Shown here piece by piece: positions 858 to 47,443 of a stretch of 64,000 nucleotides of DNA. This DNA is from Candidatus Wolfebacteria bacterium. Lineage in GTDB: Bacteria; Patescibacteriota; Minisyncoccia; Phycocordibacterales; EsbW-18. The notes below the pieces were generated by a model. The model had not been told where the DNA came from, ran no database searches, and was given only the letters and a program-made list of their open reading frames with translations. The DNA is taken from assembly GCA_022616195.1 (NCBI GenBank), contig JAKEFG010000015.1:9354-73353 (forward strand), given 5' to 3'. How positions within the stretch are numbered: position 1 is the first letter of the stretch; the number at the start of each line of letters is the position of its first letter. The position numbers were made by a program, and so were the translations under genes.

Positions 858-3443
858 ATGGAACGCTATAACCACAAAGAAATAGAGAAGAGGTGGCAGA
901 AAAAGTGGAAAGAGCAAAAACTCTACGAAACGCCAGATACGGTGGAAGGGAAGGACAATTTTTACACGCTTGTGGAATTTCCGTATCCATCGGGTAATTT
1001 ACATGTTGGACATTGGTTTGCGTATATTGGTCCAGACATATTTGCACGCTTTATGCGTATGCAAGGAAAGAATGTACTTTTCCCGATCGGCTTTGATGCG
1101 TTTGGACTACCTGCTGAAAATGCTGCTATTAAGCGCGGTATTAATCCACGGGAGTGGACCTATTCGAACATCGCATACATGCGACAGCAGTTTGAAATGA
1201 TGGGAACCTCACTTGATTGGTCTCGAGAGATCATCTCGTGTGATCCCAGATATTATCGTTGGACACAGTGGCTCTTTCTGCAATTTTTCAAAAAAGGATT
1301 AGCATATCAAAAAGAAACGGAAGTGAACTGGTGTCCGTCGTGCAAGACGGTCTTGGCAAATGAGCAAGTGGTGACGGGTGTGTGTGAACGGTGTGGAACA
1401 GAAGTCGAAAAACGGCAGATGCTCCAATGGAATTTAAAAATCACCGACTATGCAGAGCGGCTCATTGATGATCTGGAAAAGCTCGATTGGCCAGAAGAAA
1501 TCAAACAAGCACAGCGGCATTGGATTGGTAGAAGTGAAGGTGCCCTCCTTACCTTTACTATCCAAGAACACAATGCGTCTGTAGAAATATTTACGACGCG
1601 TCCAGATACCTTGTTTGGTGCAACGTATCTGGTATTGGCTCCTGAACATACGCTCATTGAGTCCTTGAAAGATAAGATTACTAATTGGGATGAGGTGGAA
1701 GCGTATAGACAAACTGCACGGAAAAAAACAGATATTGAACGGACTGCTCTCGGAAAAGAAAAGACCGGAGTTGAGCTCCAGGGAATTACGGCACTCAATC
1801 CAGGCACGCAAGAGGAAATTTCCGTCTGGGTTGCTGATTATGTACTTTCTCACTATGGCACGGGCGCTATTATGGCGGTACCAGCACACGATGAGCGGGA
1901 TTTTGCGTTTGCACAGAAGTTTAACTTGGAAAAAGTTTGCGTTATCGAGCCGCGCTCTCTGGATGATTTTACCTTGCGCAAAATGCAGGGGGTGAGTGGG
2001 GAAGAAAAAATTACAGGTAGGGCTGTTGCATATTGGCCTGATGCCGGAGAGACACCGGAGCACGGTTTTAAGAGGGAGGTTGCCGCAATTCTTGCTGGAA
2101 AGTCCGTTTATGTCGGGGAAGGGACACTGGTGCACTCTGGAAAGTTTGATGGGATAACAACACAAGAGGCACGTGAGGCAATCACCAAAGCGGTTGGAGG
2201 CGAAATGAAAACAACCTACAAACTTCGCGACTGGACGGTGTCGCGACAGCGCTACTGGGGATGCCCGATTCCGGTCATTCACTGTGCAAAATGCGGTGTG
2301 GTACCCGTGCCGGAGCATGACCTACCGGTTGTGCTTCCCGAAATTGATGACTTCATACCGACAGGGAATGGTAAGTCGCCCTTAGCGAAAGTGGTGGATT
2401 GGGTGAATGTGAAATGCCCAGAATGTGGTGGAGATGCCGAGCGCGAGACCGACACCCTGGATACGTTTGTTGACTCGTCATGGTACTTTCTCCGCTACAC
2501 CGACCCGCACAACGACAAGGAGTTTGCATCGCGCGGGAAACAGGAGGCGTGGATGCCCGTTGGTTTCTATTCGGGTGGCGCGGAACACACGACCATGCAC
2601 CTTCTCTATTCCCGTTTCTTTCACAAGGTATTATTTGACCTCGGTTTGGTTGCCGACACGGAACCGTATGTTCGTAGAATGAATCGCGGACTCATCCTCG
2701 GTCCCGACGGCAACAAAATGAGCAAGTCAAAAGGAAACGTTATTGATCCCGATGATATGGTGGAGCGGCTCGGCGCGGATACCGTGCGGATGTATCTCGC
2801 GTTCATCGGTCCCTACAATGAAGTCGGCGCGTATCCGTGGAATCCGGACGGTGTTGTCGGTGTTCGACGGTTTCTTGAACGGGTGCATGTACTGGTTACA
2901 AAGATTGCAGAGGATAGGAAGAGACTGAAAGACGTCTCTGGCGGATCTGTTTTGATTCACAGAACTGTGAGGTTTGTAACTGAGGTTATCGGACGGCTCA
3001 AATTTAATACTGCCGTTGCACAACTCATGATTCAGTTTAATGGCGAGAATAGTGAACCTGATTGGCGAGGTAAACTTAATAACAAGGGAGAGTGGGAGAG
3101 TATGGAAGTAGACCTCATGGCCCTTAAGATGTTTTTAAAACTTCTTGCACCGTTCGCGCCGCACCTTGCGGAAGAATTGTGGTACCAACTGGGGAATACC
3201 ACCTCTGTCCATCTGGAGCCGTGGCCTGAGTACGACCCGACGCTCGTCGAGGAAGAACAGGTGACCATTGTGGTACAGGTGAACGGCAAGACGAGGGGAG
3301 AGTTCGAGGCAGCCCAAGATATTGATGAGACGGACGCGCGGGAGCGAGCACTTACTCTCCCGACGGTGGAAAAGTGGCTTGGGGGGAAGGAACCCAACAA
3401 AGTTGTCTATGTCCCCGGGCGGTTGGTAAATATCGTTGTCTAG
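858..3443 (+). CDS. leuS: leucyl-tRNA synthetase
   Basis: 861 aa; class I HIGH-type motif (PYPSGNLHVGHW), KMSKSKGNVIDP motif, CP1 editing region; ATG 14 nt downstream of TGgTATAGT extended -10 (835-843). Confidence 0.97.
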   Translation: MERYNHKEIEKRWQKKWKEQKLYETPDTVEGKDNFYTLVEFPYPSGNLHVGHWFAYIGPDIFARFMRMQGKNVLFPIGFDAFGLPAENAAIKRGINPREWTYSNIAYMRQQFEMMGTSLDWSREIISCDPRYYRWTQWLFLQFFKKGLAYQKETEVNWCPSCKTVLANEQVVTGVCERCGTEVEKRQMLQWNLKITDYAERLIDDLEKLDWPEEIKQAQRHWIGRSEGALLTFTIQEHNASVEIFTTRPDTLFGATYLVLAPEHTLIESLKDKITNWDEVEAYRQTARKKTDIERTALGKEKTGVELQGITALNPGTQEEISVWVADYVLSHYGTGAIMAVPAHDERDFAFAQKFNLEKVCVIEPRSLDDFTLRKMQGVSGEEKITGRAVAYWPDAGETPEHGFKREVAAILAGKSVYVGEGTLVHSGKFDGITTQEAREAITKAVGGEMKTTYKLRDWTVSRQRYWGCPIPVIHCAKCGVVPVPEHDLPVVLPEIDDFIPTGNGKSPLAKVVDWVNVKCPECGGDAERETDTLDTFVDSSWYFLRYTDPHNDKEFASRGKQEAWMPVGFYSGGAEHTTMHLLYSRFFHKVLFDLGLVADTEPYVRRMNRGLILGPDGNKMSKSKGNVIDPDDMVERLGADTVRMYLAFIGPYNEVGAYPWNPDGVVGVRRFLERVHVLVTKIAEDRKRLKDVSGGSVLIHRTVRFVTEVIGRLKFNTAVAQLMIQFNGENSEPDWRGKLNNKGEWESMEVDLMALKMFLKLLAPFAPHLAEELWYQLGNTTSVHLEPWPEYDPTLVEEEQVTIVVQVNGKTRGEFEAAQDIDETDARERALTLPTVEKWLGGKEPNKVVYVPGRLVNIVV

Positions 3444-3554
3444 AGGCGTTTCTGAGCTTGCCTTCTGCCATTTCTCAAGAAATGGTAGGGGGTTGACGGA
3501 GATAATGGTCGGTGCTAGAATGAGTGGCTGTGAGACAAGTACTACCTCTAAAAC

Positions 3555-3583
3555 TTGCACTTATTGCTCATTTGTGATATAGT
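3555..3583 (+). promoter_or_regulatory. sigma70-type promoter TTGCAC-17nt-TGaTATAGT; -10 ends 6 nt before ATG 3590 (leaderless mRNA implied); a second TTGACG-17-TAGAAT lies at ~3493-3521
   Basis: hexamers and spacing read directly from sequence. Confidence 0.5.
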
Positions 3584-3589
3584 GGTGCC

Positions 3590-4642
3590 ATGGCTACGAA
3601 AGCAAAATCGGAGAAAACGGTGAAATTGAACTTTGTCCCGAAACAGGTTGTCAAGCGCCTGCTTGCCGTGCTTCCTGATCGTGCTGTTGATGTCCTGACC
3701 CGTCGGTATGGACTCGGAAAGGACACCGGTCGTATGACGCTTGAAGCCATCGGTCAGATTTACGATATTACCCGAGAGCGCGTCAGACAGATCGAGAATT
3801 ACGCGCTCGGGGCCATCCGCAAGTCCGAAAGCTATGAGAAGGAAAGTAAGGCCATTGATGAGCTCGAGCGGCTCATCAACGCGATGGGGGTGGTTGTCCC
3901 GGAAGAATTTTTTCTCGATGAGGTTGCAAAGGACAAGAGCACCCAGAACTACATACACTTTCTGTTGGTGCTCGGTCACCCGTTCACTCGTTTCAAGGAA
4001 GACGAACATTTTACGCATCGCTGGCATATTGATGCAGATGTCGCCCGTGGTGTTGAGGAGGCGCTGAAGAACTTGTACGCGTCACTGCCGGACGAAGAGC
4101 TTCTGTCGGAGCCGGAGCTCATGACGAGATTTCTGTCACATCTCAAAGAGCTCGCGGACCAGTACCGCGACGAAGAAATTCTGAAACGCTGGCTTTCGCT
4201 CTCGAAGAAAATTGCCAAAAGCCCTCTGGGCGATTGGGGACGTGTTGAGTCAACTGCGGTGAGCCCCCGCGGCATTCGCGACTATGCGTATCTGGTGATT
4301 CTTCGGCACGGCTCACCGCTCCACTTCACCGAAGTGGCGAAACAAATCAGCAAGCTATTTGACCGGCGGGCACACACTGCAACCGCGCACAACGAGCTCA
4401 TAAAGGACCAACGGTTCGTGCTTGTCGGACGCGGGCTCTATGCACTCTCGGAGTGGGGATACATGCAAGGTGTCGTCAAAGACGTTATTGTCGAGATTCT
4501 CAAACAGCACGGTCCGCTGACCAAAGAGGAAATCATTGACCGGGTGCTCAAGGAACGCTACGTGAAGGGAAATACTATCGCGGTCAATCTGCAGGATCCG
4601 ATGTTTAAGAGGACAAAGGACGGGAAGTACGCGCTCGCGTAG
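3590..4642 (+). CDS. sigma-70 region-4-like HTH protein with ~280-aa uncharacterised C-terminal extension (not a complete sigma factor)
   Basis: N-terminal LLAVLPDRAVDVLTRRYGLG..TLEAIGQIYDITRERVRQIENYALGAIRK matches sigma70 region 4 / FliA-type HTH; regions 2 and 3 absent; remainder helical with no known motif. Confidence 0.8.
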   Translation: MATKAKSEKTVKLNFVPKQVVKRLLAVLPDRAVDVLTRRYGLGKDTGRMTLEAIGQIYDITRERVRQIENYALGAIRKSESYEKESKAIDELERLINAMGVVVPEEFFLDEVAKDKSTQNYIHFLLVLGHPFTRFKEDEHFTHRWHIDADVARGVEEALKNLYASLPDEELLSEPELMTRFLSHLKELADQYRDEEILKRWLSLSKKIAKSPLGDWGRVESTAVSPRGIRDYAYLVILRHGSPLHFTEVAKQISKLFDRRAHTATAHNELIKDQRFVLVGRGLYALSEWGYMQGVVKDVIVEILKQHGPLTKEEIIDRVLKERYVKGNTIAVNLQDPMFKRTKDGKYALA

Positions 4643-4784
4643 CAGCTCGGAACACTCTCCTTCAAAATTCCAGATGCCTGCATGCGCCGCTCTTGAGCGG
4701 CTGTTGGGCTCTGTTGTTAACAGAAACATACAGCTGGTATACATTCGCGGCAGAAACCAGTGGTGTGTTGGGAAGGAGGTTCAG

Positions 4785-5117
4785 ATGGAGAAAGAGGAAA
4801 TCCTACATCAAGCAAATGAGATCGTCGGCGAGCACGGTCTTGTCGCCGAGCTTCTTGAAGGGGTTCTATCTGTAGGTGTTGGTGGGGATGAGCGAACCTA
4901 CTTACCCGTGCTTTGTCTGCGGGGTTCGTTTCCAGGCGACGCTTCGAGAGATTTCTACCAAGCTCACGAACGAGTTACCTATCAACAGGGTGACATTCGA
5001 GCTTGCTCGTGCGTCCCAGTAACAGCGGAGTCACGTGTCTCGGGAAGTTATCGTACGGCGGCTTCCCCGTTTCTTTTCCTGCGAACCACTTACTACCCAC
5101 TACAAACTACGGACTGA
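4785..5117 (+). pseudogene. guaA: relic of GMP synthase C-terminal (dimerisation) domain; ATP-PPase and GATase domains absent
   Basis: GVLSVGVGGDERTYLPVLCLRGSFPGDASRDFYQAHERVTY aligns with GuaA C-terminal consensus ([39 protein letters not shown]); sequence after this diverges; strong SD AGGAGG 5 nt upstream and TGgTATACA -10 at ~4735-4743. Confidence 0.45.
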
Positions 5118-5134
5118 AGTGGTATCATGACAGC

Positions 5135-6430
5135 ATGGACATTCTCCGTGAACTTTTTACCGGTCCGGGTCTTAACCTCACTCTGAGCGGTCTGCGCCTG
5201 CTTGCGCTTGCCGCGCCGGTGTGGCTGCCGCTTGTGCTCGGTATCGGTTTTTGGAAGGTGTGGGTAGGGTATCGGCGAGCGGCGTTTATTAGTAGCATGG
5301 AGTGGGTATTTCTCGAGATTCTATTACCCCAGGAAATCACCCGCTCGCCGCTCGCCATGGAACTGGTGCTCAATACGTTCCAACAGAGCTTTGGCGAGGC
5401 GCATGCATATGAAAAGTACTGGAAAGGTGGGGTGCGTCCGTGGACGTCGCTTGAGCTTGTATCTGTTGAAGGATCCGTGCATTTCATCATCCGGATACAT
5501 AAGGGAAGCCGTGCACTCATCGAGTCACAGATTTACGCAGAATATCCCGATGTCGAGATACACGAGGTTCCTGACTATATCCACGGCATTGATTTCGACA
5601 ATGAACTCGTGCAGTTATGGGGCGCTGAGTTTGCGCTTACCAAAGCCGACCCGTATCCTATCAAAACCTACGTCGACTACGGTCTCGATCGCGATCCGAA
5701 AGAAGAGCAAAAGATAGATCCGATTGCGCCGGTCATTGAATGGCTCGGCTCGCTCGGTGCCGGCGAGCAGGCATGGATTCAAATACTCGTTCGTCAGCAT
5801 AAGGACGAAACGCCTAAAATGGTCGGACCGTTCCGAAAACTTGTTGAGTTCAAGGCAGACAAGAAAAAGCTCTCCGAAAAAATCAAGTTCTTCCCGACGA
5901 CTGATGCATGGAAGGATGCAGTAAAGAAAGAAATCGAGAAAGTCGTGAAGGAGCGGAAAATCCAGAGTAAGGATGAGGAAAGCGGTCCCGTGAAACTCAC
6001 GCGCATGGAAGAAGAGGTCATCACGGCGCTCGAGCGGAGCATCACCAAGGCGGCATTCGATGTTGGTATTCGCGGTATGTATGTCGCTGAAAAGGACAAG
6101 TTCAATCCGGCGAACATCGGCGGGCTCATCGGCTCGTTCAAGCAGTACAGCACGAATCACCTCAATGGCTTCAAGCCGGGTAAGACCACCGGCGTGAAAG
6201 CGCCCTGGCAGGACCCGTTCGGCACGCGGGTGCCGAGGCGCAAGCGCATCATGCTTGATGCCTACAAGCGCCGGAGTTATTTTCATTCGCCGTACAAGCG
6301 CAAGCCTTTCATTCTGAACACGGAAGAGCTCGCGACGATGTATCACTTCCCGGGACGCGTTTCTACGACGCCGACATTCAAGCGTCTTGAGGCACGAAAG
6401 GCGGAGCCACCAGCACACTTGCCGATGTAA
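5135..6430 (+). CDS. conserved hypothetical protein, N-terminal membrane anchor (LRLLALAAPVWLPLVLGIGFW), charged helical middle, C-terminal FILNTEELATMYHFPG motif
   Basis: long ORF with good coding character; start chosen at ATG 5135 because the upstream part of the ORF overlaps the guaA relic in another frame. Confidence 0.7.
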   Translation: MDILRELFTGPGLNLTLSGLRLLALAAPVWLPLVLGIGFWKVWVGYRRAAFISSMEWVFLEILLPQEITRSPLAMELVLNTFQQSFGEAHAYEKYWKGGVRPWTSLELVSVEGSVHFIIRIHKGSRALIESQIYAEYPDVEIHEVPDYIHGIDFDNELVQLWGAEFALTKADPYPIKTYVDYGLDRDPKEEQKIDPIAPVIEWLGSLGAGEQAWIQILVRQHKDETPKMVGPFRKLVEFKADKKKLSEKIKFFPTTDAWKDAVKKEIEKVVKERKIQSKDEESGPVKLTRMEEEVITALERSITKAAFDVGIRGMYVAEKDKFNPANIGGLIGSFKQYSTNHLNGFKPGKTTGVKAPWQDPFGTRVPRRKRIMLDAYKRRSYFHSPYKRKPFILNTEELATMYHFPGRVSTTPTFKRLEARKAEPPAHLPM

Positions 6431-7650: not shown

Positions 7651-8330
7651 AGACGGAACGGAAAACACGATGGGCTGACTGGACGTTGACAAGCAAATAC
7701 ACGATAGAGAATCAAAGTCTCCGCTGACACGCGATGCGTACAGGCGGAGCAAGCAGGTAATTAAGTAAGGTATCAATGCTTGACATTGATACGCGGTTTT
7801 TAGATTTCCTAATAGGAGATCTGATAAGGGCGCACGGTGGATGCCTTGGCTCTAAACGGCGATGAAGGACGCGGCATGGCGGCGATATGCTTCGGGGAGG
7901 TGCCTAGCAACCTACGATCCGGAGATTTCCGAATGGGGAAACCCTGCGAGGTCAACCCTCGTGATCCTCTGATTCATCAGAGGAGGCACACCCGGGGAAG
8001 TGAAACATCTCAGTACCCGGAGGAACAGAGACTAATAAGTATTTCCTGAGTAGCGGCGAGCGAAATGGAAGAAGCCCAAACTCTGTGAAGCGAAAGCTAT
8101 GCAGAGGGTAGTAGGGTAACAACGTCATCTTTGATGAGGAGAGTTATAAAATGTTCTTCGTTAGCTGAATTCGTTGGAAAGCGAAGCCCGAGAGGGTAAT
8201 AGCCCCGTAATGCGAAAACGGAATGTCTCTCTTGTTGTTATTCCTGAGTACCCCGAGACATGAATAGCTCGGGGGAATCTGCCGGTACTAACCGGTAAGG
8301 CTAAATACGTTTAGAGACCGATAGTGAACC

Positions 8331-8361
<31 letters not shown>

Positions 8362-9636
8362 GGAGAGGGGGGTGAAATAGACCTGAAACCGTGCGTCTAC
8401 AAGGAGTCGAAGTGTCTTTTGGCACAACGGCGTGCCTATTGAAGAATGAGCCAACGAGTGTACGTGTACTGCTCGGCTAAGTCCTTTGTCGGACGAAGCC
8501 ACAGGGAAACCGAGTGTTAACAGCGCGAACTATAACTTTTTGCCGTGCGTGTGTTTCCTAGGACGCATGGTAAAGAGTTATCTGTAGTACATGTACGACC
8601 CGAAGCCGGGTGATCTACCCATGACCAGGGTGAACCTTACCGAAAGGTGGGGGGAGGCCCGAACCGATACGCGGTACAAAACGTTCGGATGAGTTGTGGG
8701 TCGGAGTGAAAAGCTAATCGAACCCGGTAATAGCTGGTTCTCTCCGAAATAGCTTTAGGGCTAGCGTTATGTGTTTCCCTCGGGGGTAGAGCACTGGAAG
8801 GAGTAGACAGGGCGAAAGCTCGCTTCTCCTATCAAACTCCGAATACCGAGGGTTAGAGCATAGCAGTTAGACTATGGGCGCTAAGGTCCATTGGTCAAAA
8901 GGGAAACAGCCCAGACCTCAAGCTAAGGTCCCTAAATCGACACTAAGTGCACGTAAGGAGGTGCAATTTCTCTGACACTGAGGAGGTTGGCTTAGAAGCA
9001 GCCATCCTTTAAAGAAAGCGTAACAGCTCACTCACTTAGAGATTGTGCGCCGCAAATAATCGGGGCTAAGTGTCGTACCGACGCTGAGGATTGTATCCCG
9101 TTTCGACGGGGTGCAGTGGTAGGAGAGCATTTCTATTGCTATGAAGCCCCTGTGTAAACCGGGGTGGAGCGATGGGAAGAGAGAATGTTGGCACAAGTAA
9201 CCGCAAGGCAGGTGCGATCCCTGCCCGCCGAAATCCCAAGGTTTCCTTGGCAATGTCAATCAGCCAAGGGTTAGTCGGTCCTAAGGAGATGGCGAAAGCC
9301 GTATCCGATGGACACACGGTTAATATTCCGTGACTTCCTGTTCATTCGATGGAGTAACGGAGGGTTGTACACGTTGCACATTATTGGATTTGTGTGCATG
9401 CTTTGAGGGAGTCAGTTAGGCAAATCCGGCTGACGCCACCCCGAGAAGTGTGCGGAATTCCGCTACGGCGGGAGAACAACGTGGAGCACGCTCCCGAGAA
9501 AAACTTCTAAGGTTCATGTCCAGGAAACCGTACCGCAAACCGACACAGGTGGGAAGGTCGAGAAGACCAAGGCGAACGGGTGAGAGATCCTCAAGGAACT
9601 CGGCAAAAAAGCGGCCGTAAGTTCGCAATAAGGCCT

Positions 9637-10028
9637 CCCAGCACTAGATTAAGTTCTTAAATGTAAACAGTAAGGAGAAAAAGCATGACAAATGAGCAGT
9701 ACCTAAAGGCAATCGGTGAAATGAAAAAAATAATACCGGCAGAAATTTTACCGGAGAGGATTGACACAAGCCGTAAATTCTCTGAAACTTCTGTAGAACA
9801 GAAGTTAAAACATTCTCTATATTTGTTAGAGAATGTCCCGACTTTTCTCGAGGTAGGAAAACGAGAAAAATCATCAAGACATTTAGCTTTTGCTCAGGCA
9901 ATCCTTTGGTCTTTGGACATGTTGGCAATCGACCAATTAATGGATTTCAACAGAAGATGATCATAATCGGGTGGTGATGATTATTTTTCACGCTCCCCGA
10001 ATTTTTAAGAATTTAATCTAGTGCTGGG
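9637..10028 (+). other. IVS-like insertion in a variable 23S helix (approx. E. coli helix 63 region), closed by a ~25-bp stem with one G-U; ~340 nt inserted
   Basis: cccagcactagattaagttcttaaa ... tttaagaatttaatctagtgctggg are reverse complements; flanking sequence continues into GACTGTTTACCAAAAACACAG (E. coli ~1770-1785). Confidence 0.65.
9685..9960 (+). CDS. 91-aa protein encoded inside the 23S IVS-like insertion (hypothetical, all-helical)
   Basis: ATG preceded by TAAGGAG 7 nt upstream; terminator-like hairpin plus T-run after the stop (~9955-9990). Confidence 0.55.
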   Translation: MTNEQYLKAIGEMKKIIPAEILPERIDTSRKFSETSVEQKLKHSLYLLENVPTFLEVGKREKSSRHLAFAQAILWSLDMLAIDQLMDFNRR

Positions 10029-10185
10029 CGCAGCGAAAGTATCCCTGGCGACTGTTTACCAAAAACACAGCTCCCTGCGAACTCGTAAGAGGATGTATAG
10101 GGGGTGACGCCTGACCAATGCCAGAAGGTCAAACGCGGAGGGTACATGTGACTTCGGTTATATGTGCTGGACTGCGTAAGCCCTG

Positions 10186-10224
<39 letters not shown>

Positions 10225-10883
10225 CAATTCCTTGTCTGGTAAGTTCAGACGTGCACGAATGGCGTAACGACTGGGGAACTGTCTCGAGGATTCGCCCGGT
10301 GAAAATGCAATGGGGGTGAAGATGCCCTCTACCTGCAGTTAGACGAAAAGACCCCAGGAGCTTTACTGTAACTTGATAGTGGGGGTACGTAGTATATGCG
10401 TAGCATAGGTGGGAGACGTTGAAGCGAAGGTCTCGGCTTTCGTAGAGTCGCCAGTGAAATACCACTCTTATATAGCGTGCTTTCTAACCTCGACGGCAAA
10501 AACGGCGGGGGACAGTATCTGGTAGGCAGTTTTAGTGGGGCGCTATCCTCCTAAAAAGTAACGGAGGAGCCTATTACGGTCAGCTAGGCGCGAATGGAAA
10601 CCGTGCCGATAGTGTAATGGCAGAAGCTGGCCTGACTGCAAGGGGTACATCCCGAGCAGGCGCGAAAGCGGAGCATAGTGAACCGAGAGTTCCCTTTAGA
10701 CGGGGCTCGAGATTAACGGATAAAAGTTACCCTGGGGATAACAGGCTGGTCCTGCCTAAGAGTCCATATCGACGGCAGGGTTCGGCACCTCGATGTCGGC
10801 TCACCGTATCCTGGCGCTGGAGAAGGTGCCAAGGGTTTGGCTGTTCGCCAATTAAAACGGTACGCGAGCTGGGTTCAGACCGT

Positions 10884-11360
10884 TCTGGGCATGAATCATA
10901 AGATATGAATCATGAATAGAGCAGTCTGAATCCGCTCATAACGACACAATCGTTTTTTCGTCTATGAAATAAGTCCCGATTTTGATGTATCAAAATCGAG
11001 GATCCCGACCAGAGCGTCGGGAATAGAATCAACCTAATCACGGCGGTCATGTGTAGTAATACGCATGTATCAAGCTGACCCCGATTTTGATGTATCAAAT
11101 CGAGGATCCCGACCAGAGCGTCGGGACTAATATCGGTGAATTTCTAGCTTCTAGGTAAGAAGAAGGAGGACACCGAGGGAATGGTTCGACTTTGCTCACC
11201 ACGAGCAAATAGAATTCGGCCCGTAGAGACTGAACGTCAGCGTTCCTTACTCATGTTTTGTGTTATACGCGACATGTGTTGGGAATATGCTACAGTCCGA
11301 TCCCGCCGGTAACGGCGGTGTGGCTAGACGCTAGGAGCTAGCGGCTAGTTGCTACAGTTG
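10884..11360 (+). mobile_element. ORF-less group-I-like intron inserted exactly after U2593 (E. coli numbering) of 23S
   Basis: exon reads GGGUUCAGACCGU | CGUGAGACAGG, matching E. coli G2581-U2593 | C2594-G2603; 5' exon ends in U and insert ends in G, as for group I introns; longest ORF <65 aa. Confidence 0.6.
10975..11126 (+). repeat. two direct copies (10975-11022 and 11080-11126) of a 48-bp element, each made of two hairpins (cgattttgat-gta-atcaaaatcg and tcccgac-cagagc-gtcggga), separated by 57 nt, inside the L2593 intron
   Basis: copies identical except one A in the A-run. Confidence 0.85.
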
Positions 11361-11423: not shown

Positions 11424-12251
11424 AAGTAATTGCTACTCTTCGGAGAGATCCGAAGTGACAATGTGGCTTATAACGGTGAAGCCTTCATATGATTACTGTC
11501 CGAGGATTGTGAATAGCTATTGGTCCAGCTATGGTATAATTCGCTTGCGGACCGTAATCCGCTGCAAGGTAATACCGTGGGAAGTCGATCTCAAACACAC
11601 ACAGCGTATATAGCGGGTTTTCTTGATGGTGACGGCAGTTTGATGCTGCAGATCAAAAAACGATCTGATACAAAACGAGGTATTCGTTTTATGGCAACAA
11701 TCTGTCTGTATCAAGATACTCGCCATGAGAGGCCGCTGTGCTGGATGCGTGAAGTTTTAGGCATTGGATATCTATCTCGACGCCGTGACGGCATTACAGA
11801 GTTACGTATCAATGGCTTTAGTCAGTGCAAAACAATTCTTGAACAACTAGTACCGTATATACGGTTTAAGAAGGTTCAAGTGAGTGCATTGCTCGAGGCA
11901 TGTACGGTACTGTGTACGACGCCGTTTTCAAAGCTCACGAAACAACAGCAGAAGTATTTGGTTGACCGTATTGTGATCATTCAACATGAAAACTATACAA
12001 CCAAGTCAAAAAAGCGTAGGGAAGAGCTGTATGCATGTTTGGATTTGACCCCGTAACGACTTGTTCATGTAGTTGCCACTACATGGCGGACTTGCTGATG
12101 TATTGAATCAGGAATGTATTCCTGACAATCTCAGTGGGTAACATGCCGCCACCCTCGTCCTCCATCTCATGGGGAACGGGTGAAGATATAGTCTATGCTC
12201 CTGGAAACAGGGGAGTAATCTTGTTTTTCAAAAGTGAAACAAGAGATACAT
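11424..12251 (+). mobile_element. 828-nt intron in the sarcin-ricin loop of 23S (after U2656), carrying a LAGLIDADG homing-endonuclease gene
   Basis: flanking exons join to GCUGCUCCUAGU|ACGAGAGGACCGGAGUGGAC, identical to the E. coli SRL sequence; 5' exon ends U and insert ends G. Confidence 0.75.
11520..12056 (+). CDS. single-motif LAGLIDADG homing endonuclease, I-CreI-like
   Basis: YIAGFLDGDGS motif; ~170 aa; GIGYLSRRRDG and LEQLVPYIRFKKVQVSALLEAC segments parallel I-CreI GVGYVRDRGS / FLTQLQPFLKLKQKQANLVLKII; ORF-track start is TTG 11520; in-frame GTG 11577 lies after a perfect TGgTATAAT (11531-11539). Confidence 0.85.
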   Translation: MVQLWYNSLADRNPLQGNTVGSRSQTHTAYIAGFLDGDGSLMLQIKKRSDTKRGIRFMATICLYQDTRHERPLCWMREVLGIGYLSRRRDGITELRINGFSQCKTILEQLVPYIRFKKVQVSALLEACTVLCTTPFSKLTKQQQKYLVDRIVIIQHENYTTKSKKRREELYACLDLTP

Positions 12252-12545: not shown

Positions 12546-12656
12546 TGTGTTGGTGGTTCGACGCTGTGGAGACACCCGTTCTCATTCCGAACACGGCAGT
12601 TAAGCACAGTAGTGGCGATGGTACTCGCAAGGGGAGAGTAGCTAGCCGCCAACACA
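12546..12656 (+). rRNA. rrf: 5S ribosomal RNA
   Basis: CCGUUCUCAUUCCGAACACGG..GUAGUGGCGAUGGUACUCGCAAGGGGAGAGUAGCUAGCCGCC; ends pair as helix I. Confidence 0.85.
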
Positions 12657-19661: not shown

Positions 19662-19725
19662 GTAGCTAGTTGTGCCGCACGTTCCTCTAATGAAGGGAGC
19701 GTGTGCTGTTTGTGTCTCCTTGTCT

Positions 19726-22700
19726 ATGCCTACAGAGCAAAAACACTTCGGAAAATACAAGAAGCCACTCGCACCGATGCCAAATCTTGTGGAGGAGCAA
19801 CTTCGCTCGTTCCGCAGCTTTCTTGCGAATGGGGTTACAGATATCTTCAAGGAGTTCTCACCACTCGCTGACTATTCAGGTAAGAAGTTTGAGTTGGCAT
19901 TCTCTGATATTACCATCGGCGAACCAAAATACGACGAAGAACACGCCAAAGAAAACAAGCGCACATATGAAGGGACCCTATCTGCGCAGGTGACACTCTT
20001 CAATAAAACACTTGGAACCAAAAAGGAACAGGAGATTTTCCTTGCCGATTTTCCGCTCATGACCGATCACGGGACGTTTATCTTTAACGGTGTCGAGCGG
20101 GTTATTGTACCCCAGCTCATTCGCTCATTTGGGGTTTTGTTTGGCTCACAAGATATAAAAGGACGCCAGTATTTTGGTGCAAAAATCATACCGTCACGCG
20201 GTGTTTGGATTGAGTTGGAGACGGATGCGCAGAATGTTATTTGGGTCCGTATTGACCGCAAGCGGAAATTCTCAGTCACGAGTCTACTGCGGGTGCTTGG
20301 TGCTAAGACGGACGCAAATATACGGGAACTCTTTAAAAAACACCCCGGAGCGAAGGAATACATCAATGCATCACTTGAGAAGGATGTAGCGACGAATCAA
20401 GACGAGTCGTTTGTTGAAATTCATCGCAAGCTTCGCGACGGTGATCTGGCGACGGTCGAGAACGCTCGTGAGTTAGTTAATTCAATCTTTAACGAAGATA
20501 GGTACGACCTCTCGGAAGTTGGACGATACCGTTTTAACCACCGATTTGGCAAGAGCACTGACCCTAAGGAATTGGGACGCCAGACAATTGACTTGGACGA
20601 TGTTACAACTATTGTCACACATATTATTGAGCTTAACAACACGCCGGGGGCGGTTGCAGACGATATTGATGACCTAGGCTCACGCCGTGTGCGCTATGTC
20701 GGCGAGATGCTTCAACACCGTCTTCGTGTCGGACTAACGCGCATGAAGCGGCAGACTCAGGACAGGATGTCTATTCTTGATGCAGAAACAACACTTCCTG
20801 TGCAGCTTGTCAATCCTCGTCCACTCACTGCTCAAATCAAGGAGTTTTTTAGTACCAACCAGCTTTCACAGTTTATGCAACAGGAGAATATCCTGCAGGA
20901 GATTGAACACCTCCGGACGTTTTCAGCGCTCGGTCCTGGCGGGCTCACGCGCGAGCGGGCTGGTTTTGAGGTTCGCGATGTACACCCATCACACTACGGG
21001 CGTCTCTGCCCAATCCACACACCTGAGGGTCCAAATATTGGTCTCATTCTTCACCTTGCAACATATGCACGCATTAATGATTTTGGCCTCATTGAAACTC
21101 CATATGCACGTGTTGCAGACGGTGTCATCACCGGCGAGGTGGTGTACTTGAATGCGCAGGACGAGGAACAATACCGCATTGCGCATGTGGCGACGCATTC
21201 CGATGAGACGGGAAACATTCTGGACGAAAAAGTAGAGGTTCGCTTCATGGGTAAGCCTGACTTGGTTGATCGAAGCCAGGTTGACTTCATTGACGTGGCA
21301 ACAAACCAAGCATATTCAATTGCAACATCACTCATTCCATTCTTGAATCACAATGATGCAAACCGTGCGCTTATGGGCTCCAACATGCAGAAGCAAGCGG
21401 TGCCGTGCATCAAGCCACAACCGCCATTGGTTGCGACTGGGATGGAGGCACAGGCAGCACGTGATTCTGGGCGAGTAGTACTTGCACGCGAGGCTGGCAC
21501 TGTTTCCTATGTTGACGCACGTATGGTGAGAGTGAAGGGTGAGAAAGGAAAAGATGAAGAATACCCCCTCGTCAATTTCTCTCGAACGAATAGTTTTACC
21601 GTGTTTCACCAGCGTCCGGCTGTGAGTGTCAATGATACGGTGAAGCGTGGTGATATGCTTGCTGATACTTCATCAACTACAGGCGGTCAACTCTCAATAG
21701 GGCAGAATGTGCTTGTCGCGTTTATGTCCTGGTCCGGCATGAACTTTGAAGATGCCATTGTGATTTCCGAGCGGCTGGTGAAGGACGATGTGTTTACATC
21801 AGTGCATACTGAAGAATTTCTCTGCAATGTTCGCGATACCAAACTTGGTCCGGAGGTGACGACGCACGATATCCCAAATGTTGGTGAGGCAAAACTCAAA
21901 AACCTTGATGAAGAGGGCATTATCCGTATTGGCTCGGAAGTCCGTCCGGGTGATATCCTGGTCGGCAAAGTAACACCTAAAGGTGAAACCCAGCTTACAC
22001 CTGAGGAGCGGCTCCTTCGTTCCATTTTTGGCGAGAAGGCAAAGGACGTGAAAGACACGTCGCTTCGGATGGAAGCAGGGAAGCGTGGCCGTGTTGTCGG
22101 TGTTAAGGTGTTCTCGCGCGAGCACGGTGATCAACTTGAGTCGGGCATCATCAAGAAAATCTTTATTGAGGTCGCGGAACTCCGTCGTGTGCAGGTTGGT
22201 GATAAACTCGCCGGTCGTCACGGCAACAAAGGCGTTATTGCTAAAGTGCTCGCAGCAGAAGATATGCCGTATATGGAGGACGGCACGCCGGTTGACCTTA
22301 TCGTGACACCTCTCGGTGTGCCCTCGCGCATGAACCTGGGACAAATTCTTGAAATCCACCTCGGTCTGGCCGCTCACACCCTGAACTATCAAGCGATTGT
22401 TCCGGCGTTTGCAGGTGCCACAGAATCGGAGATTAGAGATGAACTCAAGGCGGCGGGCTTTCCCGAAAGTGGCAAAGTGCCACTTCGTGATGGGCGTACC
22501 GGTAAGAAGTTTGATAAGGATATTGCGCTTGGGTATATGTATATGCTCAAACTTGAACATATGGTTGAGGATAAAATTCACATGCGTTCAATTGGTCCGT
22601 ATTCGCTCATTACCCAACAGCCCTTGGGCGGGCGGGCACAGCGTGGCGGCCAGCGGTTTGGCGAGATGGAGGTCTGGGCGCTCCTCGGGCACGGTGCGGC

Positions 22701-22872
22701 ATATACGTTGCGAGAGATGCTTACGATGAAGTCGGATGATATTCTCGGACGCTCGGCAATGTTTGATGCGATTGTAAAAGGTGAGCCGATTCGTCCCCCA
22801 AACATCCCAGCATCGTTTAATGTACTCGTGCACTATCTGCGCGGGTTATCGCTTGATATAGATTTTCGCTAA
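19726..22872 (+). CDS. rpoB: DNA-directed RNA polymerase subunit beta
   Basis: 1049 aa; rifampicin-cluster region (FFSTNQLSQFMQQENILQEIEHLRTFSALGPGGL), GNKGV, catalytic motifs. Confidence 0.97.
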   Translation: MPTEQKHFGKYKKPLAPMPNLVEEQLRSFRSFLANGVTDIFKEFSPLADYSGKKFELAFSDITIGEPKYDEEHAKENKRTYEGTLSAQVTLFNKTLGTKKEQEIFLADFPLMTDHGTFIFNGVERVIVPQLIRSFGVLFGSQDIKGRQYFGAKIIPSRGVWIELETDAQNVIWVRIDRKRKFSVTSLLRVLGAKTDANIRELFKKHPGAKEYINASLEKDVATNQDESFVEIHRKLRDGDLATVENARELVNSIFNEDRYDLSEVGRYRFNHRFGKSTDPKELGRQTIDLDDVTTIVTHIIELNNTPGAVADDIDDLGSRRVRYVGEMLQHRLRVGLTRMKRQTQDRMSILDAETTLPVQLVNPRPLTAQIKEFFSTNQLSQFMQQENILQEIEHLRTFSALGPGGLTRERAGFEVRDVHPSHYGRLCPIHTPEGPNIGLILHLATYARINDFGLIETPYARVADGVITGEVVYLNAQDEEQYRIAHVATHSDETGNILDEKVEVRFMGKPDLVDRSQVDFIDVATNQAYSIATSLIPFLNHNDANRALMGSNMQKQAVPCIKPQPPLVATGMEAQAARDSGRVVLAREAGTVSYVDARMVRVKGEKGKDEEYPLVNFSRTNSFTVFHQRPAVSVNDTVKRGDMLADTSSTTGGQLSIGQNVLVAFMSWSGMNFEDAIVISERLVKDDVFTSVHTEEFLCNVRDTKLGPEVTTHDIPNVGEAKLKNLDEEGIIRIGSEVRPGDILVGKVTPKGETQLTPEERLLRSIFGEKAKDVKDTSLRMEAGKRGRVVGVKVFSREHGDQLESGIIKKIFIEVAELRRVQVGDKLAGRHGNKGVIAKVLAAEDMPYMEDGTPVDLIVTPLGVPSRMNLGQILEIHLGLAAHTLNYQAIVPAFAGATESEIRDELKAAGFPESGKVPLRDGRTGKKFDKDIALGYMYMLKLEHMVEDKIHMRSIGPYSLITQQPLGGRAQRGGQRFGEMEVWALLGHGAAYTLREMLTMKSDDILGRSAMFDAIVKGEPIRPPNIPASFNVLVHYLRGLSLDIDFR

Positions 22873-22877
22873 CATAT

Positions 22878-25800
22878 ATGGAGAAGAAACGAGGAGATAT
22901 TCCACGAGAGTTCAACGAGATGTTCCTTCGGCTTGCGAGTCCGGAGCGGATCTTGGAGTGGTCATATGGCGAAGTGACCAAACCGGAAACAATCAACTAC
23001 CGTACGCAGCGAAGCGAAAAGAACGGACTCTTTGACGAAAAGATTTTTGGTCCCGAGAAGGACTTTGAGTGCTATTGCGGCAAGTACCGTGGCATTCGTT
23101 ATCGCGGTATTATTTGTGAGAAGTGCGGTGTTGAAGTAACACGTTCTATCGTCCGCCGCGAACGCATGGGACATATTGAGCTCGCAACACCCGTTGCACA
23201 CATTTGGTTTCTTCGGAACATCCCGTCGCGCATGGCGCTTCTTTTAGGTGTCTCGGCGCCGGACTTGGAGAAGGTAGTCTACTTCGCTGCGTATATCGTG
23301 ACGGCAATCTCTGAAGATGAGCGTGTCCGCCTTCTCAAGGACTTGGAATCTGAGTACAAGAGCAAGACAAAATCACTTCAGGACGCAAAATCAAAATCGG
23401 CCTTGAAGGAAGCATATCTCGGAGCGAAACGTGATATTCAGAGTATACGGGTTGGGAGTATTATTGATGACGCGACGTATGCGCGTTTCAGCATGAAGTA
23501 CGGCTCGCTTTTTGAGGCGGCGACTGGTGCAGAAGCTATTCACGCGATTTTCAATACCATTGATCTCAAGAAACTTGCTAAGGAAGTGGAGGCGGAACTT
23601 GCCGAGGGTAAGGCGGCAGACAGTAAAAAGCTTAAGAAACGGTTGTCACTCATTAACGCAATGATTCGCTCAAAGGTGCGTCCAGAGTGGATGTTTGTAA
23701 CCATACTCCCGGTCATCCCTGCGGCGATTCGTCCGATGGTGGCGCTTGAGGGCGGACGTCATGCGACGAGTGATTTAAACGACCTCTACCGACGCGTCAT
23801 CAATCGCAACAACCGCCTCAAAAAATTAGTGGACATTAAAGCGCCGGCGGTCATTTTACGGAATGAAAAGCGCATCTTGCAAGAGGCGGTAGACGCGCTA
23901 ATTGACAACTCAATGAGACAGGGGAGCTCGTATTCGGTGATGAGTCAGGCACAGCGCCGTCCTCTGAAATCGCTTGCAGACAATCTCTCCCGCAAGCAGG
24001 GTATTTTCAGACAGAACCTTCTTGGGAAACGCGTTGACTACTCAGGGCGTTCTGTCATCGTGGTCGGCCCTGAACTTCATCTCGACCAGTGTGGCCTGCC
24101 GAAACACATGGCGCTTGAGCTCTTCCGTCCGTTTGTCATCCAAAAACTTTTGGAACGTGAGTATGCATTTAACATTCGCGGTGCAGGACGTCTGATTGAT
24201 GAGAGAACTCCGGAAGTGTGGGAGATTCTTGAGGAAGTTATTACTGACAAGTACGTACTCTTGAACCGTGCACCGACTCTCCACCGGCTCGGCATTCAAG
24301 CATTCCGTCCCGTTCTCATCGAAGGCGAGGCGATTCAGATTCACCCGCTTGTTGTTCAGGCGTTCAATGCCGACTTTGACGGTGACCAGATGGCAGTACA
24401 TGTGCCGCTCTCTAAGGAAGCCCAGAAAGAGGCAGAGATGATTATGTCAGCAAGTCGGAATCTCCTTCGCCCCGGATCAGGCGCTCCGATTGTCTCCATA
24501 GCACACCAGGACATCATTCTTGGGTGTTATTGGATGACCAAGATCGTGGAGGGTGAGAAGGGTGAGGGGAAAGCGTTCGAGTCGCCGAACGCTGCCATCA
24601 CCGCGTTTAATTTTGACAACGTGTCGCTTCGAGCGAAGATTTTTGTCAAGCCGACAGGGAAAGAAAAATATTCACCTTTCGGGGGCAACCGGTTTGAAAC
24701 ATCGATTGGCCGACTCTTGTTCAACGGTGTCTTGCCTGATGACTATGCATTCATTAACGCCGAGATTACCAAGAAGGAAATGGGCAAAATTGTTGCAACA
24801 ATTATCGCTCGGTATGACCATGAGACGGTCACAGAGATTTTAGACAAAATAAAAGCGTTTGGTTTCCGATATACGACAGCATCGGGTATCACGTTCGGGT
24901 TGGGGGACATTCCAATTCCAAAGGCCAAAAAAGAACTTGTTGACAGGGCAATCGCTGCCTCAGGCGAGGTACACGCGCAGTATGAAGACGGGCTGTTGTC
25001 CGAGGACGAGCGATATCGGCAAAATATTGAGATTTGGCATGGGTTGCGTGCTGAGATGGAGCGTGCGGTTGATGACACGCTTGATGCGCAGAGCTCTATT
25101 AATGATATGTGGCGCTCGGGTGCCCGCGGCTCACTCTCACAAATCACCAATATGGCGGGAATGAAAGGCCTCATCGCTGGGCCGCAGGGACGCATTATTG
25201 AGTTTCCGATCCTCTCATCAAACAAAGAGGGACTTACACCGATCGAGTACTTTATTACAACCCACGGTTCTCGGAAGGGACTCGGTGATACCGCGCTCAA
25301 CACGTCACGATCAGGATATCTAACGCGTCGTCTCTTTGATGTTTCACAGGATGTGGTAATTACTGAAGAGGACTGTAAAACAAAAGGCGGTATTGTAATC
25401 AAGCATCAAAACCTTGGCGGCATTGAAGTACCACTCACCAAAGGTCTCGCTGGCAGATTTCTTGCAGATACAGTGAAGGATACAGACGGTACTATCTTGT
25501 TCAAACGAAACGACTACATGACGGAGGAGTACGCGGAAACCATTGCATCGGCAGGTATTGAGGAGGTCTTTGTACGCTCACCTATGACCTGCGAGTCAGT
25601 TGAGGGTATTTGCGTACGTTGCTATGGGCGTGATATGGGACGCAATGATCCTGTATCACTCGGCGAAGCGGTCGGAACGATTGCCGCGCAGTCTATTGGA
25701 GAGCCGGCAACTCAGCTCACCATGCGCACGTTTCATGCCGGGGGAACCGCGAGCGTCGGGGGTGACATTGTGCAAGGTCTTCCGCGCGTGGAAGAAATTT

Positions 25801-26546
25801 TCGAGTGCCGCCCGCCGAAGAACCCCGCAATCATTGCTGACGTTGCAGGGACGGTCACGGACATTATAGATACTGGGAAAGAGAAAATCATTACCGTTCT
25901 TTCAAATGCGACGGATATCAAGAAAAAGAAGGAGGGGAAGACTGAGGCAACCGAGTATGGCATACATCGCTATCGTATGTCGCTGGTAAAAAAGGGCGAC
26001 ACGGTGGAAAAGGGAGAATTGCTAACCGATGGGTCAGCGGACCTCCAGAAACTTTTCAAGCTTGCAGGCAAGGAGAAGACGCAGGAATACATCATTTCCG
26101 AAATCAGCAAAATCTATGAATTGCAGGGAGCATCGGTTGCTCGTCCGCATATTGAGGTTATCGTCCGACAGATGTTCTCTCGTTATAAAGTGACTCATTC
26201 CGGCGATACGGATTTCTCTGTAGGTGATGTTGTCGAACAAAGTGAACTTACTCGCGTGAATGAAGAAATAAACAATAAAGGTGGTACGGAGGCAAAAGCG
26301 CGCCAGCTTATCATGGGTATCGCGTCAGTGGCACTCTCACGACGAAGTTTTCTCTCGGCGGCATCGTTCCAGAACACAAACCGTGTTCTGATTGACGCGG
26401 CGCTTCGGGGGAGCTCTGATCCCATCAAAGGTCTCAAAGAGAACGTTATCGTCGGCCGTTTGATCCCTGCCGGAACCGGCTATGCGGGAAGTCCCAAGTG
26501 GGAGCTTGTGCACAATCTTCGAGACGAGGAGGATGTCGACGAGTAA
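22878..26546 (+). CDS. rpoC: DNA-directed RNA polymerase subunit beta'
   Basis: NADFDGD catalytic motif, zinc-binding CxxC pairs, bridge helix. Confidence 0.97.
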   Translation: MEKKRGDIPREFNEMFLRLASPERILEWSYGEVTKPETINYRTQRSEKNGLFDEKIFGPEKDFECYCGKYRGIRYRGIICEKCGVEVTRSIVRRERMGHIELATPVAHIWFLRNIPSRMALLLGVSAPDLEKVVYFAAYIVTAISEDERVRLLKDLESEYKSKTKSLQDAKSKSALKEAYLGAKRDIQSIRVGSIIDDATYARFSMKYGSLFEAATGAEAIHAIFNTIDLKKLAKEVEAELAEGKAADSKKLKKRLSLINAMIRSKVRPEWMFVTILPVIPAAIRPMVALEGGRHATSDLNDLYRRVINRNNRLKKLVDIKAPAVILRNEKRILQEAVDALIDNSMRQGSSYSVMSQAQRRPLKSLADNLSRKQGIFRQNLLGKRVDYSGRSVIVVGPELHLDQCGLPKHMALELFRPFVIQKLLEREYAFNIRGAGRLIDERTPEVWEILEEVITDKYVLLNRAPTLHRLGIQAFRPVLIEGEAIQIHPLVVQAFNADFDGDQMAVHVPLSKEAQKEAEMIMSASRNLLRPGSGAPIVSIAHQDIILGCYWMTKIVEGEKGEGKAFESPNAAITAFNFDNVSLRAKIFVKPTGKEKYSPFGGNRFETSIGRLLFNGVLPDDYAFINAEITKKEMGKIVATIIARYDHETVTEILDKIKAFGFRYTTASGITFGLGDIPIPKAKKELVDRAIAASGEVHAQYEDGLLSEDERYRQNIEIWHGLRAEMERAVDDTLDAQSSINDMWRSGARGSLSQITNMAGMKGLIAGPQGRIIEFPILSSNKEGLTPIEYFITTHGSRKGLGDTALNTSRSGYLTRRLFDVSQDVVITEEDCKTKGGIVIKHQNLGGIEVPLTKGLAGRFLADTVKDTDGTILFKRNDYMTEEYAETIASAGIEEVFVRSPMTCESVEGICVRCYGRDMGRNDPVSLGEAVGTIAAQSIGEPATQLTMRTFHAGGTASVGGDIVQGLPRVEEIFECRPPKNPAIIADVAGTVTDIIDTGKEKIITVLSNATDIKKKKEGKTEATEYGIHRYRMSLVKKGDTVEKGELLTDGSADLQKLFKLAGKEKTQEYIISEISKIYELQGASVARPHIEVIVRQMFSRYKVTHSGDTDFSVGDVVEQSELTRVNEEINNKGGTEAKARQLIMGIASVALSRRSFLSAASFQNTNRVLIDAALRGSSDPIKGLKENVIVGRLIPAGTGYAGSPKWELVHNLRDEEDVDE

Positions 26547-26614
26547 CGTTCCTTACAATACAACAGTTCTGAGACAGCGTTATGTGTGAAACACCGTAGA
26601 TCTGTGACTTGTCT

Positions 26615-28285: not shown

Positions 28286-28301
28286 TTTTTAGTTTGTATA
28301 C

Positions 28302-31134: not shown

Positions 31135-31644
31135 ATGAACCAAAACACCAACCCGGAGGAACTCTTTTTGAAGGCGTATGAGGGGTTTGGTGATTCGGTC
31201 TTTCGGCACTGCTATCTGCGCGTTTCGCCTCGCGAGGAAGCGGTGGATATTACCCAGGAGGCATTCATGAAGGTGTGGGACTATCTCCGCACCGGGCAAG
31301 AAGTTCACAACATGAAGGCGTTTGTGTTTAAGACAGTGAACAATCTCATCATTGACTGGTACCGGAAGAAAAAACCGGTGACGCTTGACGACGAAGAGGC
31401 GCTCCGTATTCCCGACACTCTACACGCTACAGATCCGGAACTCGCGGCGCTCGGCAGAGAAGCACTCACACTTCTTGCGCGCCTTGATGGAGAGTACCGA
31501 ACTGTGGTGGAACTCCGTATCATTGAAGGATTTGGTCCTAAGGAGATTGCCGAGATCTTGGGCGAGACCGAGAACGCGGTATCGGTGCGCATTCACCGCG
31601 GCATTGCAAAACTTCGTGAATTGTATGAAAGCTCACCGGAGTAA
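31135..31644 (+). CDS. ECF (group IV) sigma factor
   Basis: sigma70 region 2 (AFMKVWDYL..NNLIIDWYRKKK) and region 4 (EGFGPKEIAEILGETENAVSVRIHRGIAKLRE). Confidence 0.88.
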   Translation: MNQNTNPEELFLKAYEGFGDSVFRHCYLRVSPREEAVDITQEAFMKVWDYLRTGQEVHNMKAFVFKTVNNLIIDWYRKKKPVTLDDEEALRIPDTLHATDPELAALGREALTLLARLDGEYRTVVELRIIEGFGPKEIAEILGETENAVSVRIHRGIAKLRELYESSPE

Positions 31645-31648
31645 CGTC

Positions 31649-32848: not shown

Positions 32849-32878
32849 GAATATCCTGAAATTTTAGGATGCGGATGG

Positions 32879-34780: not shown

Positions 34781-34783
34781 GGT

Positions 34784-47371: not shown

Positions 47372-47443
47372 GATACATTCGGTTGTCTGAAACATTCTAA
47401 TATTCTATAGAATATTAGAATGTTTCAGCGTGGTTACGATGTC

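Follow-up and report, generated by a model that had tools for sequence, protein, structure and literature searches.

The locus analyzed here raises the question of what a sigma-70 region 4 does at the N-terminus of a protein, detached from the rest of a sigma factor. The protein, of 350 amino acids (aa), is encoded at positions 3590 to 4642 of the forward strand (ATG start; stop codon at 4640 to 4642) of a 64,000-nucleotide (nt) stretch of a Candidatus Wolfebacteria genome (GenBank assembly GCA_022616195.1, contig JAKEFG010000015.1, positions 9,354 to 73,353), referred to below as the window. It is identical to GenBank entry MCI0619791.1 from a 75-kb contig of Candidatus Wolfebacteria, annotated as "hypothetical protein L0Y40_02015". 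The organism belongs to the candidate phyla radiation (CPR; Patescibacteria), a group that contributes a large part of bacterial diversity. Its members have tiny genomes and few regulators, and their transcription biology is almost unstudied experimentally. The original prediction, made from the sequence alone, regarded the protein as a sigma mimic, an anti-sigma-type regulator, or a transcription factor that had borrowed the sigma helix-turn-helix (HTH). As the positions equivalent to the -35-contacting residues of sigma are nearly invariant, the last of these three fits best. The protein probably binds DNA as a promoter factor instead of serving as a sigma factor, and we give a probability of about 0.5 to the more specific reading that it acts at promoters independently of sigma and reads TTGACA-like hexamers.

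Both the open reading frame (ORF) and its N-terminal, stand-alone region 4 are real. The Pfam model Sigma70_r4 (PF04545) was matched over its whole length by residues 24 to 78 (E value of 5.3e-14; 51.9 bits against a cutoff of 24.1), a span that includes the peptide quoted in the original prediction (residues 50 to 73). Pfam, NCBIfam, hhalign, and the structural model together delimit a complete region 4 (4.1 and 4.2) at residues 17 to 79 (positions 3638 to 3826). In a family alignment of 104 sequences with a mean identity of 34%, this region was N-terminal in all 104 members, and not C-terminal after regions 2 and 3. Family residues 1 to 85 matched a region 4 profile, built from about 60 sigma factors recovered from the fetched loci, with an hhalign probability of 99.8% (E value of 3e-30).

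The remainder of a sigma factor was not detected. Neither Sigma70_r2 nor Sigma70_r3 of Pfam matched the protein, even at an E value of ≤1, and comparison of family residues 80 to 350 with sigma regions 1.2 through 3 gave an hhalign probability of 0.2% (E value of 0.35), which leaves no sign of cryptic regions 2 or 3. Likewise, matches to NCBIfam sigma models were confined to the region 4 end of the RpoD, RpoS, and MzaA models and fell far below the full-length cutoffs; the best scores were 60 bits for MzaA (cutoff of 800), 50 bits for RpoD (cutoff of 500), and 27 bits for sigma70-ECF (cutoff of 42.9). Judged by its sequence, this is no sigma factor, and the expectation that it would not prove an ordinary alternative sigma held in both of its tests, with a strong region 4 match and no hidden regions 2 and 3. 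As regions 1, 2, and 3 are missing, it should be unable to bind the core clamp helices or to melt a -10 element. The window also encodes a complete RpoD (regions 1.1, 1.2, 2, 3, and 4; 28302 to 29579) and an extracytoplasmic function (ECF) sigma factor (31135 to 31644); normal sigma factors are therefore present in this genome, and the protein is an extra.

The residues retained in region 4 are the equivalents of those with which sigma contacts the -35 element. The protein is 36% identical to region 4 of the genome's own RpoD and carries the recognition helix motif TRERVRQIE (residues 61 to 69), compared with TRERIRQIE in that RpoD. Positions were numbered after residues 540 to 613 of Escherichia coli sigma-70, whose sequence and numbering agree with the known R584/E585/R586/R588/Q589 motif. 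Across the 104 members, the equivalents of the -35-contacting residues R562, T572, L573, R584, E585, R586, R588, and Q589 were 100% conserved, and those of R554 (92%) and E574 (79%) less so. In contrast, L540, E542, E555, L607, and F610, which are conserved in sigma factors and lie in helices H1, H2, and H5, were variable or missing in the family, and the patch contacted by activators and the C-terminal domain of alpha (K593, R596, and K597, plus E575) was not conserved. The sigma set used for this comparison was recruited via the pattern TRER[VI]RQI and is biased to primary-like sigma factors, whereas the family columns are unbiased. Helices H1, H2, and H5 are the parts of sigma domain 4 that contact the beta-flap (PMC2988021). 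Loss of these flap-side positions and of the activator patch weakens the ideas of a sigma mimic and of an anti-sigma-type regulator. As the -35-reading HTH is kept, autonomous binding of TTGACA-like sequences would be the most likely activity.

The original prediction had missed the domains of the C-terminal part of about 270 aa, which is not featureless: it is predicted to form four winged helices (WH1 to WH4), including a delta-type HARE-HTH. An AlphaFold2 model computed from the family alignment had a mean predicted local distance difference test score (pLDDT) of 96.4 and a predicted template modeling score of 0.88. Residues 1 to 16 (positions 3590 to 3637) form a variable, Lys-rich tail (gapped alignment; mean of 0.5 bits; pLDDT of 66 in the first 10-residue block). 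Sigma domain 4 follows, with helices at residues 17 to 25, 30 to 40, 51 to 58, and 62 to 78, the last being the recognition helix. Beyond it are four units of three helices and a beta-hairpin each (residues 86 to 146, 149 to 218, 229 to 286, and 296 to 349), a pattern that marks them as winged helices.

WH1, together with a linker helix, spans residues 80 to 147 (positions 3827 to 4030), and the winged-helix-like WH2 spans residues 148 to 222 (positions 4031 to 4255); both are acidic and less conserved, although WH2 ends in a conserved KRWLSLSK...NPLGxWG motif. WH3 (residues 223 to 291; positions 4256 to 4462) is basic and the most conserved domain. It is the HARE-HTH, as identified by Foldseek and by Pfam (PF05066; residues 232 to 289; E value of 1e-8; 35.9 bits against a gathering threshold of 25.9), and contains the invariant residues H245, F246, H267, N268, L270, G280, G282, Y284, and L286. 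The basic, conserved WH4 (residues 292 to 350; positions 4463 to 4639) is related to WH3, and Pfam reported a second HARE-HTH stretch within it. The winged helices were weakly alike in hhalign comparisons (probabilities of 80.7% for WH1-WH2, 71% for WH3-WH4, and 74% for WH2-WH4), which is consistent with an origin by internal duplication. Median net charges across the family were +5 for sigma domain 4, +5 for WH3, and +4 for WH4, and this distribution supports a putative role of these three domains in nucleic acid binding.

Each part of this architecture has known counterparts. Domain 4 of the primary sigma factors (RpoD/SigA) is homologous over its full length, with identities of 30 to 44% and template modeling (TM) scores of up to 0.9 in comparisons with solved structures of sigma-A domain 4, an identical TRER(V/I)RQIE motif, and -35-contact equivalents that are invariant or nearly so. 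However, the domain is N-terminal here, regions 1, 2, and 3 are missing, and the sigma-conserved H1/H2/H5 and activator-patch positions are lost. The delta subunit (RpoE) of Firmicutes RNA polymerase (RNAP) shares the HARE-HTH winged-helix fold (Foldseek match to the RpoE model 9a6y_A) and a link to the transcription apparatus. However, residues 231 to 298 scored 23.2 bits with the delta model TIGR04567 (cutoff of 42), and two other winged helices precede the HARE-HTH, which in delta is N-terminal. Delta displaces nucleic acids by means of a long, acidic region at its C-terminus (PMC7749165); this region is absent here, and the protein ends instead in a basic, folded winged helix (pLDDT of 96 to 98; net charge of +3, family median of +4). 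Given the score below the cutoff, the lack of an acidic tail, and a search of the Protein Data Bank with the single sequence of WH3-WH4 that returned chance matches only, identification as a true delta subunit was rejected.

The best whole-chain Foldseek matches were tandem winged-helix arrays (WH1 to WH4 of the SelB C-terminus, UFL1/DDRGK1, and Dcc1), which have three or four consecutive winged helices; the likeness was at the level of the repeat (TM scores of 0.2 to 0.3; 11 to 17% identity), and none of them has a sigma domain. Modulation of -35-dependent initiation, which we propose for this protein, would be a functional theme shared with T4 AsiA and gp33, Rsd, and WhiB-like proteins, and AsiA is known to act in this way (PMC2988021). 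However, there is no kinship in sequence or fold, and the targets of those proteins are sigma domain 4 or the flap, whereas the present protein is itself a sigma domain 4. The MzaA protein of the MZA anti-phage system was considered and rejected, as the 60-bit match to NF041931 (cutoff of 800) covered only model positions 644 to 707, the region 4 part. A role in defense is likewise unlikely, since the PADLOC match to MzaA was limited to positions 600 to 669, again the region 4 part, and the gene lies in conserved housekeeping synteny.

The family is large and strongly conserved. A search of 5.8 billion proteins returned at least 8000 matches. The best 120 of these were 340 to 357 aa long, shared 59 to 99% identity with the protein, and all contained both PF04545 and PF05066; they were annotated as "hypothetical," "HTH HARE-type," "wHTH protein," or, once, "RNAP delta subunit," and the named sources among them were Yonath-, Taylor-, Nomura-, and Lloydbacteria. 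An exhaustive hidden Markov model search of 1.84 billion representatives yielded 716 clusters (at 50% identity; E value of ≤1e-30); among the best 150 of these, most were 320 to 390 aa long and aligned over their full length, the remainder being fragments and one long fusion. One member, P0149 (659 aa, from a European Nucleotide Archive metagenome contig), carries an N-terminal SecF (PF02355 and Sec_GG); it was set aside as a functional clue, as it is probably a gene-call or frameshift artifact that joins adjacent genes. Full-length members were also found in Kaiser-, Doudna-, Falkow-, and Peregrinibacteria, in Paceibacterota, and in generic Patescibacteria metagenome-assembled genomes by a species-level genome scan, which is a sample of the taxonomic range and not a census and which, through the pattern TRER[VI]RQI, recovered mostly ordinary sigma factors.

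Relatives outside the CPR occur in Streptosporangiaceae, where an uncharacterized "sigma factor-like helix-turn-helix DNA-binding protein" of 605 to 620 aa likewise has a sigma region 4 followed by winged helices that include a HARE-HTH. The 613-aa protein of Streptosporangium was 25% identical over residues 13 to 345 (tblastn E value of 7e-13). These relatives are highly conserved within their clade (77 to 100% identity across genera) but differ from the present protein in about 125 extra N-terminal and about 200 extra C-terminal residues and in genomic context. Because they have the same domain order, the architecture is CPR-dominated, not CPR-exclusive; strict CPR specificity, which the original prediction had raised as a question, does not hold. 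At the locus of Streptosporangium sp. NPDC002721 (2576 to 6524), a UvrD/GajB-like superfamily 1 helicase, weakly like the HelD/HelR RNAP-recycling motors, is encoded immediately 5' of the relative, and the two could form a separate two-gene system.

The identity of the protein in the window genome to its counterparts in two other Parcubacteria genomes was 62 to 64%, compared with 46 to 49% for leucyl-tRNA synthetase (LeuRS), 39 to 44% for a DUF8128 protein, 38 to 41% for YceG, and 39 to 46% for a DUF5671 protein, all encoded nearby. It therefore evolves more slowly than an aminoacyl-tRNA synthetase and is under strong purifying selection. A literature search (HARE-HTH with sigma, Patescibacteria with sigma or delta, CPR with region 4, and the Pfam accessions) found no description or test of the family. 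The original HARE-HTH paper, by Aravind and Iyer in 2012 (PMC3272235), may mention bacterial proteins in which sigma-like and delta-like features are joined. Both domains are already recognized by automated annotation; what is new is an uncharacterized, highly conserved, CPR-wide architecture of known domains.

The gene itself is preceded by the strongest promoter-like site in the window as scored by pattern matching, TTGACG and TAGAAT separated by 17 nt and with the TG of an extended -10 (3493 to 3521, forward strand; 10 of 12 matches plus TG). It ends 68 nt before the ATG, which would give a leader of about 60 to 68 nt. A weaker site read by eye, TTGCAC-17 nt-TATAGT preceded by TGa (3555 to 3583, forward strand; 8 of 12 matches), has its -10 end 6 nt ahead of A3590, a leaderless geometry, and was not conserved at other loci. 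At 17 orthologous loci, a near-consensus TTGACx-17-TAnnnT/A, mostly with TGn, was present 9 to 97 nt 5' of the ATG. A strong sigma-A-type promoter thus appears to be conserved before the gene, as the original prediction held for this locus, whereas the leaderless start that it also proposed is not conserved. Shine-Dalgarno-like motifs were rare in the window (7 of 39 genes under a loose definition), and their absence at a gene is the norm. Several genes (e.g., those at 858, 3590, 22878, 46487 to 47395 on the minus strand, and 55596) have a -10-like TATAGT, TATACT, or TAGAAT about 5 to 15 nt from the start codon, which suggests that leaderless mRNAs or very short leaders are common in this organism.

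The gene lies in the conserved order DUF5671-LeuRS-target-DUF8128-YceG, with LeuRS (858 to 3443) on its 5' side and the 431-aa DUF8128 protein (5135 to 6430, forward strand) as the conserved 3' neighbor, followed by YceG/MltG. The DUF8128 protein has a hydrophobic helical segment at its N-terminus and a fold like that of the VirB4 N-terminal domain. The gap between the target and DUF8128 genes varied among loci from 31 to about 490 nt and, at 492 nt, is unusually long in the window (4643 to 5134). Here it contains a small ORF with an ATG at 4786 and a Shine-Dalgarno sequence, GGAAGGAGG, at 4772 to 4780, among the few strong ones in the window, and a second frame at 4876 to 5022. Joined over a frameshift near 4935 to 4945, the product weakly resembled the GMP synthase C-terminal domain (PF00958; E value of 4e-5; 24 bits against a cutoff of 27), and the ORF has the look of a remnant disrupted by a frameshift, or else of an error in sequencing. 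It was not present in the equivalent gap (31 to 135 nt) of the orthologous loci L001 and L003.

How the protein might work can be outlined as follows. Its N-terminal, full copy of primary-sigma domain 4 would bind TTGACA-like hexamers on duplex DNA by itself, while the basic, conserved WH3 and WH4 would also contact flanking DNA and perhaps RNAP, and the acidic WH1 and WH2 could act as a rigid spacer or a module for contacts with proteins. On sigma-A-type promoters, its own TTGACG promoter among them, the protein would then occupy or mark the -35 region and modulate -35-dependent initiation globally, either by competing with holoenzyme or by handing over to it. We propose that this function is of housekeeping grade in CPR bacteria. 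What the analysis shows is the domain architecture, the lack of sigma regions 2 and 3, the invariance of the -35-contact residues, strong purifying selection, and a wide distribution in the CPR; the binding of DNA, the sequence bound, and the regulatory outcome are what we infer. Several considerations weigh against such a -35 reader. The recognition helix could be invariant for the sake of another ligand, and the DNA-binding face of sigma domain 4 could be buried against the winged helices. Both recognizable domains descend from RNAP subunits, and conservation beyond that of an aminoacyl-tRNA synthetase is met more typically among subunits of the core machinery than among transcription factors. 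The comparison of contact residues relied on the sigma set biased to primary-like sigma factors by its TRER[VI]RQI recruitment. Furthermore, a protein that bound every -35 element would compete with RpoD everywhere, which needs some extra regulatory logic.

Some of these points lead to the main rival, which we consider possible, if somewhat unlikely, namely, that the protein is an accessory subunit of RNAP, a chimera of sigma domain 4 and delta. In that case, sigma domain 4 would sit on the beta-flap tip, as in holoenzyme, and the HARE-HTH on beta-prime, like the N-terminal domain of delta, whose binding site on RNAP lies between the shelf and jaw of beta-prime (PMC7749165). Riding on core enzyme or holoenzyme, the protein would alter recycling or the use of promoters; it could, for instance, displace domain 4 of RpoD so that extended -10 promoters are favored, in the manner of AsiA or gp33. 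The origin of both identifiable domains in RNAP subunits, the conservation in excess of that of LeuRS, the uniform length over many CPR lineages, the retention of all helices H1 to H4 and not just the HTH, and the TGn of most promoters upstream of orthologues are all as expected of such a subunit. However, it is the DNA-contacting residues that are invariant, while the sigma-conserved positions in H1, H2, and H5 (L540, E542, E555, L607, and F610) are variable or absent, and the protein both falls short of the delta equivalog model (23 bits against a cutoff of 42) and lacks the acidic C-terminal tail that is the functional part of delta. A further rival concerns the neighboring gene, as a functional link to the DUF8128 protein is possible. 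The membrane-anchored, VirB4-N-terminal-like neighbor could sequester the sigma domain 4 protein in the style of an anti-sigma factor, or the pair could tether DNA to machinery in the membrane that takes up, transfers, or segregates it. We regard a DNA adaptor or membrane-controlled regulator of this kind as distinctly unlikely: the intergenic gaps differ in length and many are long (31 to about 490 nt, with a pseudogene-like ORF in the window), so that cotranscription is not assured, the pair is absent at the Peregrinibacteria locus, the actinobacterial relatives adjoin a UvrD-like helicase instead, and small CPR genomes can inherit gene order without a functional link.

Two further alternatives carry far less weight. 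The presence of a genuine region 4 like that of primary sigma factors would suit a divergent or circularly permuted alternative sigma with regions 2 and 3 hidden in residues 80 to 350, or one half of a split sigma, and two-subunit sigma factors do exist (SigO-RsoA of Bacillus subtilis). The form with cryptic regions is refuted by the hhalign probability of 0.2% for these residues, and we hold a sigma of either type to be highly improbable. Just as improbable is an RNA-binding protein with a SelB-like tandem array, although Foldseek matched the whole chain to WH1 to WH4 of the SelB C-terminus (1lva, 2ply, and 2uwm; E values of about 2e-3 to 2e-2) and to other tandem winged-helix proteins. With TM scores of 0.2 to 0.3 and root mean square deviations of 13 to 17 Å, the resemblance is at the level of the winged-helix repeat only, and the invariant -35-contact residues would be left unexplained.

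By its gene content, the window is an ordinary CPR chromosome, which farther 3' encodes 23S and 5S rRNA, FtsW, RNase R, rpoB, rpoC, dnaG, gyrA, and other housekeeping genes. The classical pair of dnaG and rpoD (26609 to 29579) lies directly 3' of rpoB (19672 to 22872) and rpoC (22878 to 26546), and in RpoD, region 1.1 is preceded by a long and very basic extension of the N-terminus (about 75 residues, K/R-rich). The 23S rRNA (7814 to 10965; full model) and 5S rRNA (12549 to 12654) genes are separated by about 1.6 kb and have no adjacent 16S gene; a LAGLIDADG homing endonuclease ORF (11520 to 12056) sits in this spacer, past the end of the 23S match and, oddly, not inside it. The ECF sigma gene (31135 to 31644) is followed by that of a DUF5667 protein (31385 to 32848; as listed, overlapping in another frame), and the opposite strand nearby encodes a CHASE2-adenylate/guanylate cyclase-TPR protein (32879 to 34780) and a FecR-like protein (34784 to 35860). 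This group (31135 to 35860) is a possible signaling cluster in an otherwise minimal genome.

The family thus evolves slowly, occurs in many CPR lineages, and combines parts of two RNAP subunits, yet its members are annotated as "hypothetical." Slow evolution, CPR-wide spread, and RNAP-derived parts make it a strong candidate for a core factor of transcription specific to this lineage. It poses a testable question: can a sigma domain 4 that occurs naturally in isolation read -35 elements when the remainder of sigma is missing, and with what effect on initiation? If the proposed reading is true, the protein would be a natural case of the DNA-reading module of sigma reused outside a sigma factor. 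A bolder version, which we think rather unlikely, is that it is an unrecognized stoichiometric component of the CPR/Patescibacteria transcription apparatus, a chimera of sigma domain 4 and a delta-type domain present on RNAP or on every -35 element as a second, sigma-independent -35 reader; such a component might be membrane controlled via the conserved VirB4-N-terminal-like neighbor. If that were so, promoter recognition in CPR bacteria would depart from the textbook holoenzyme model.
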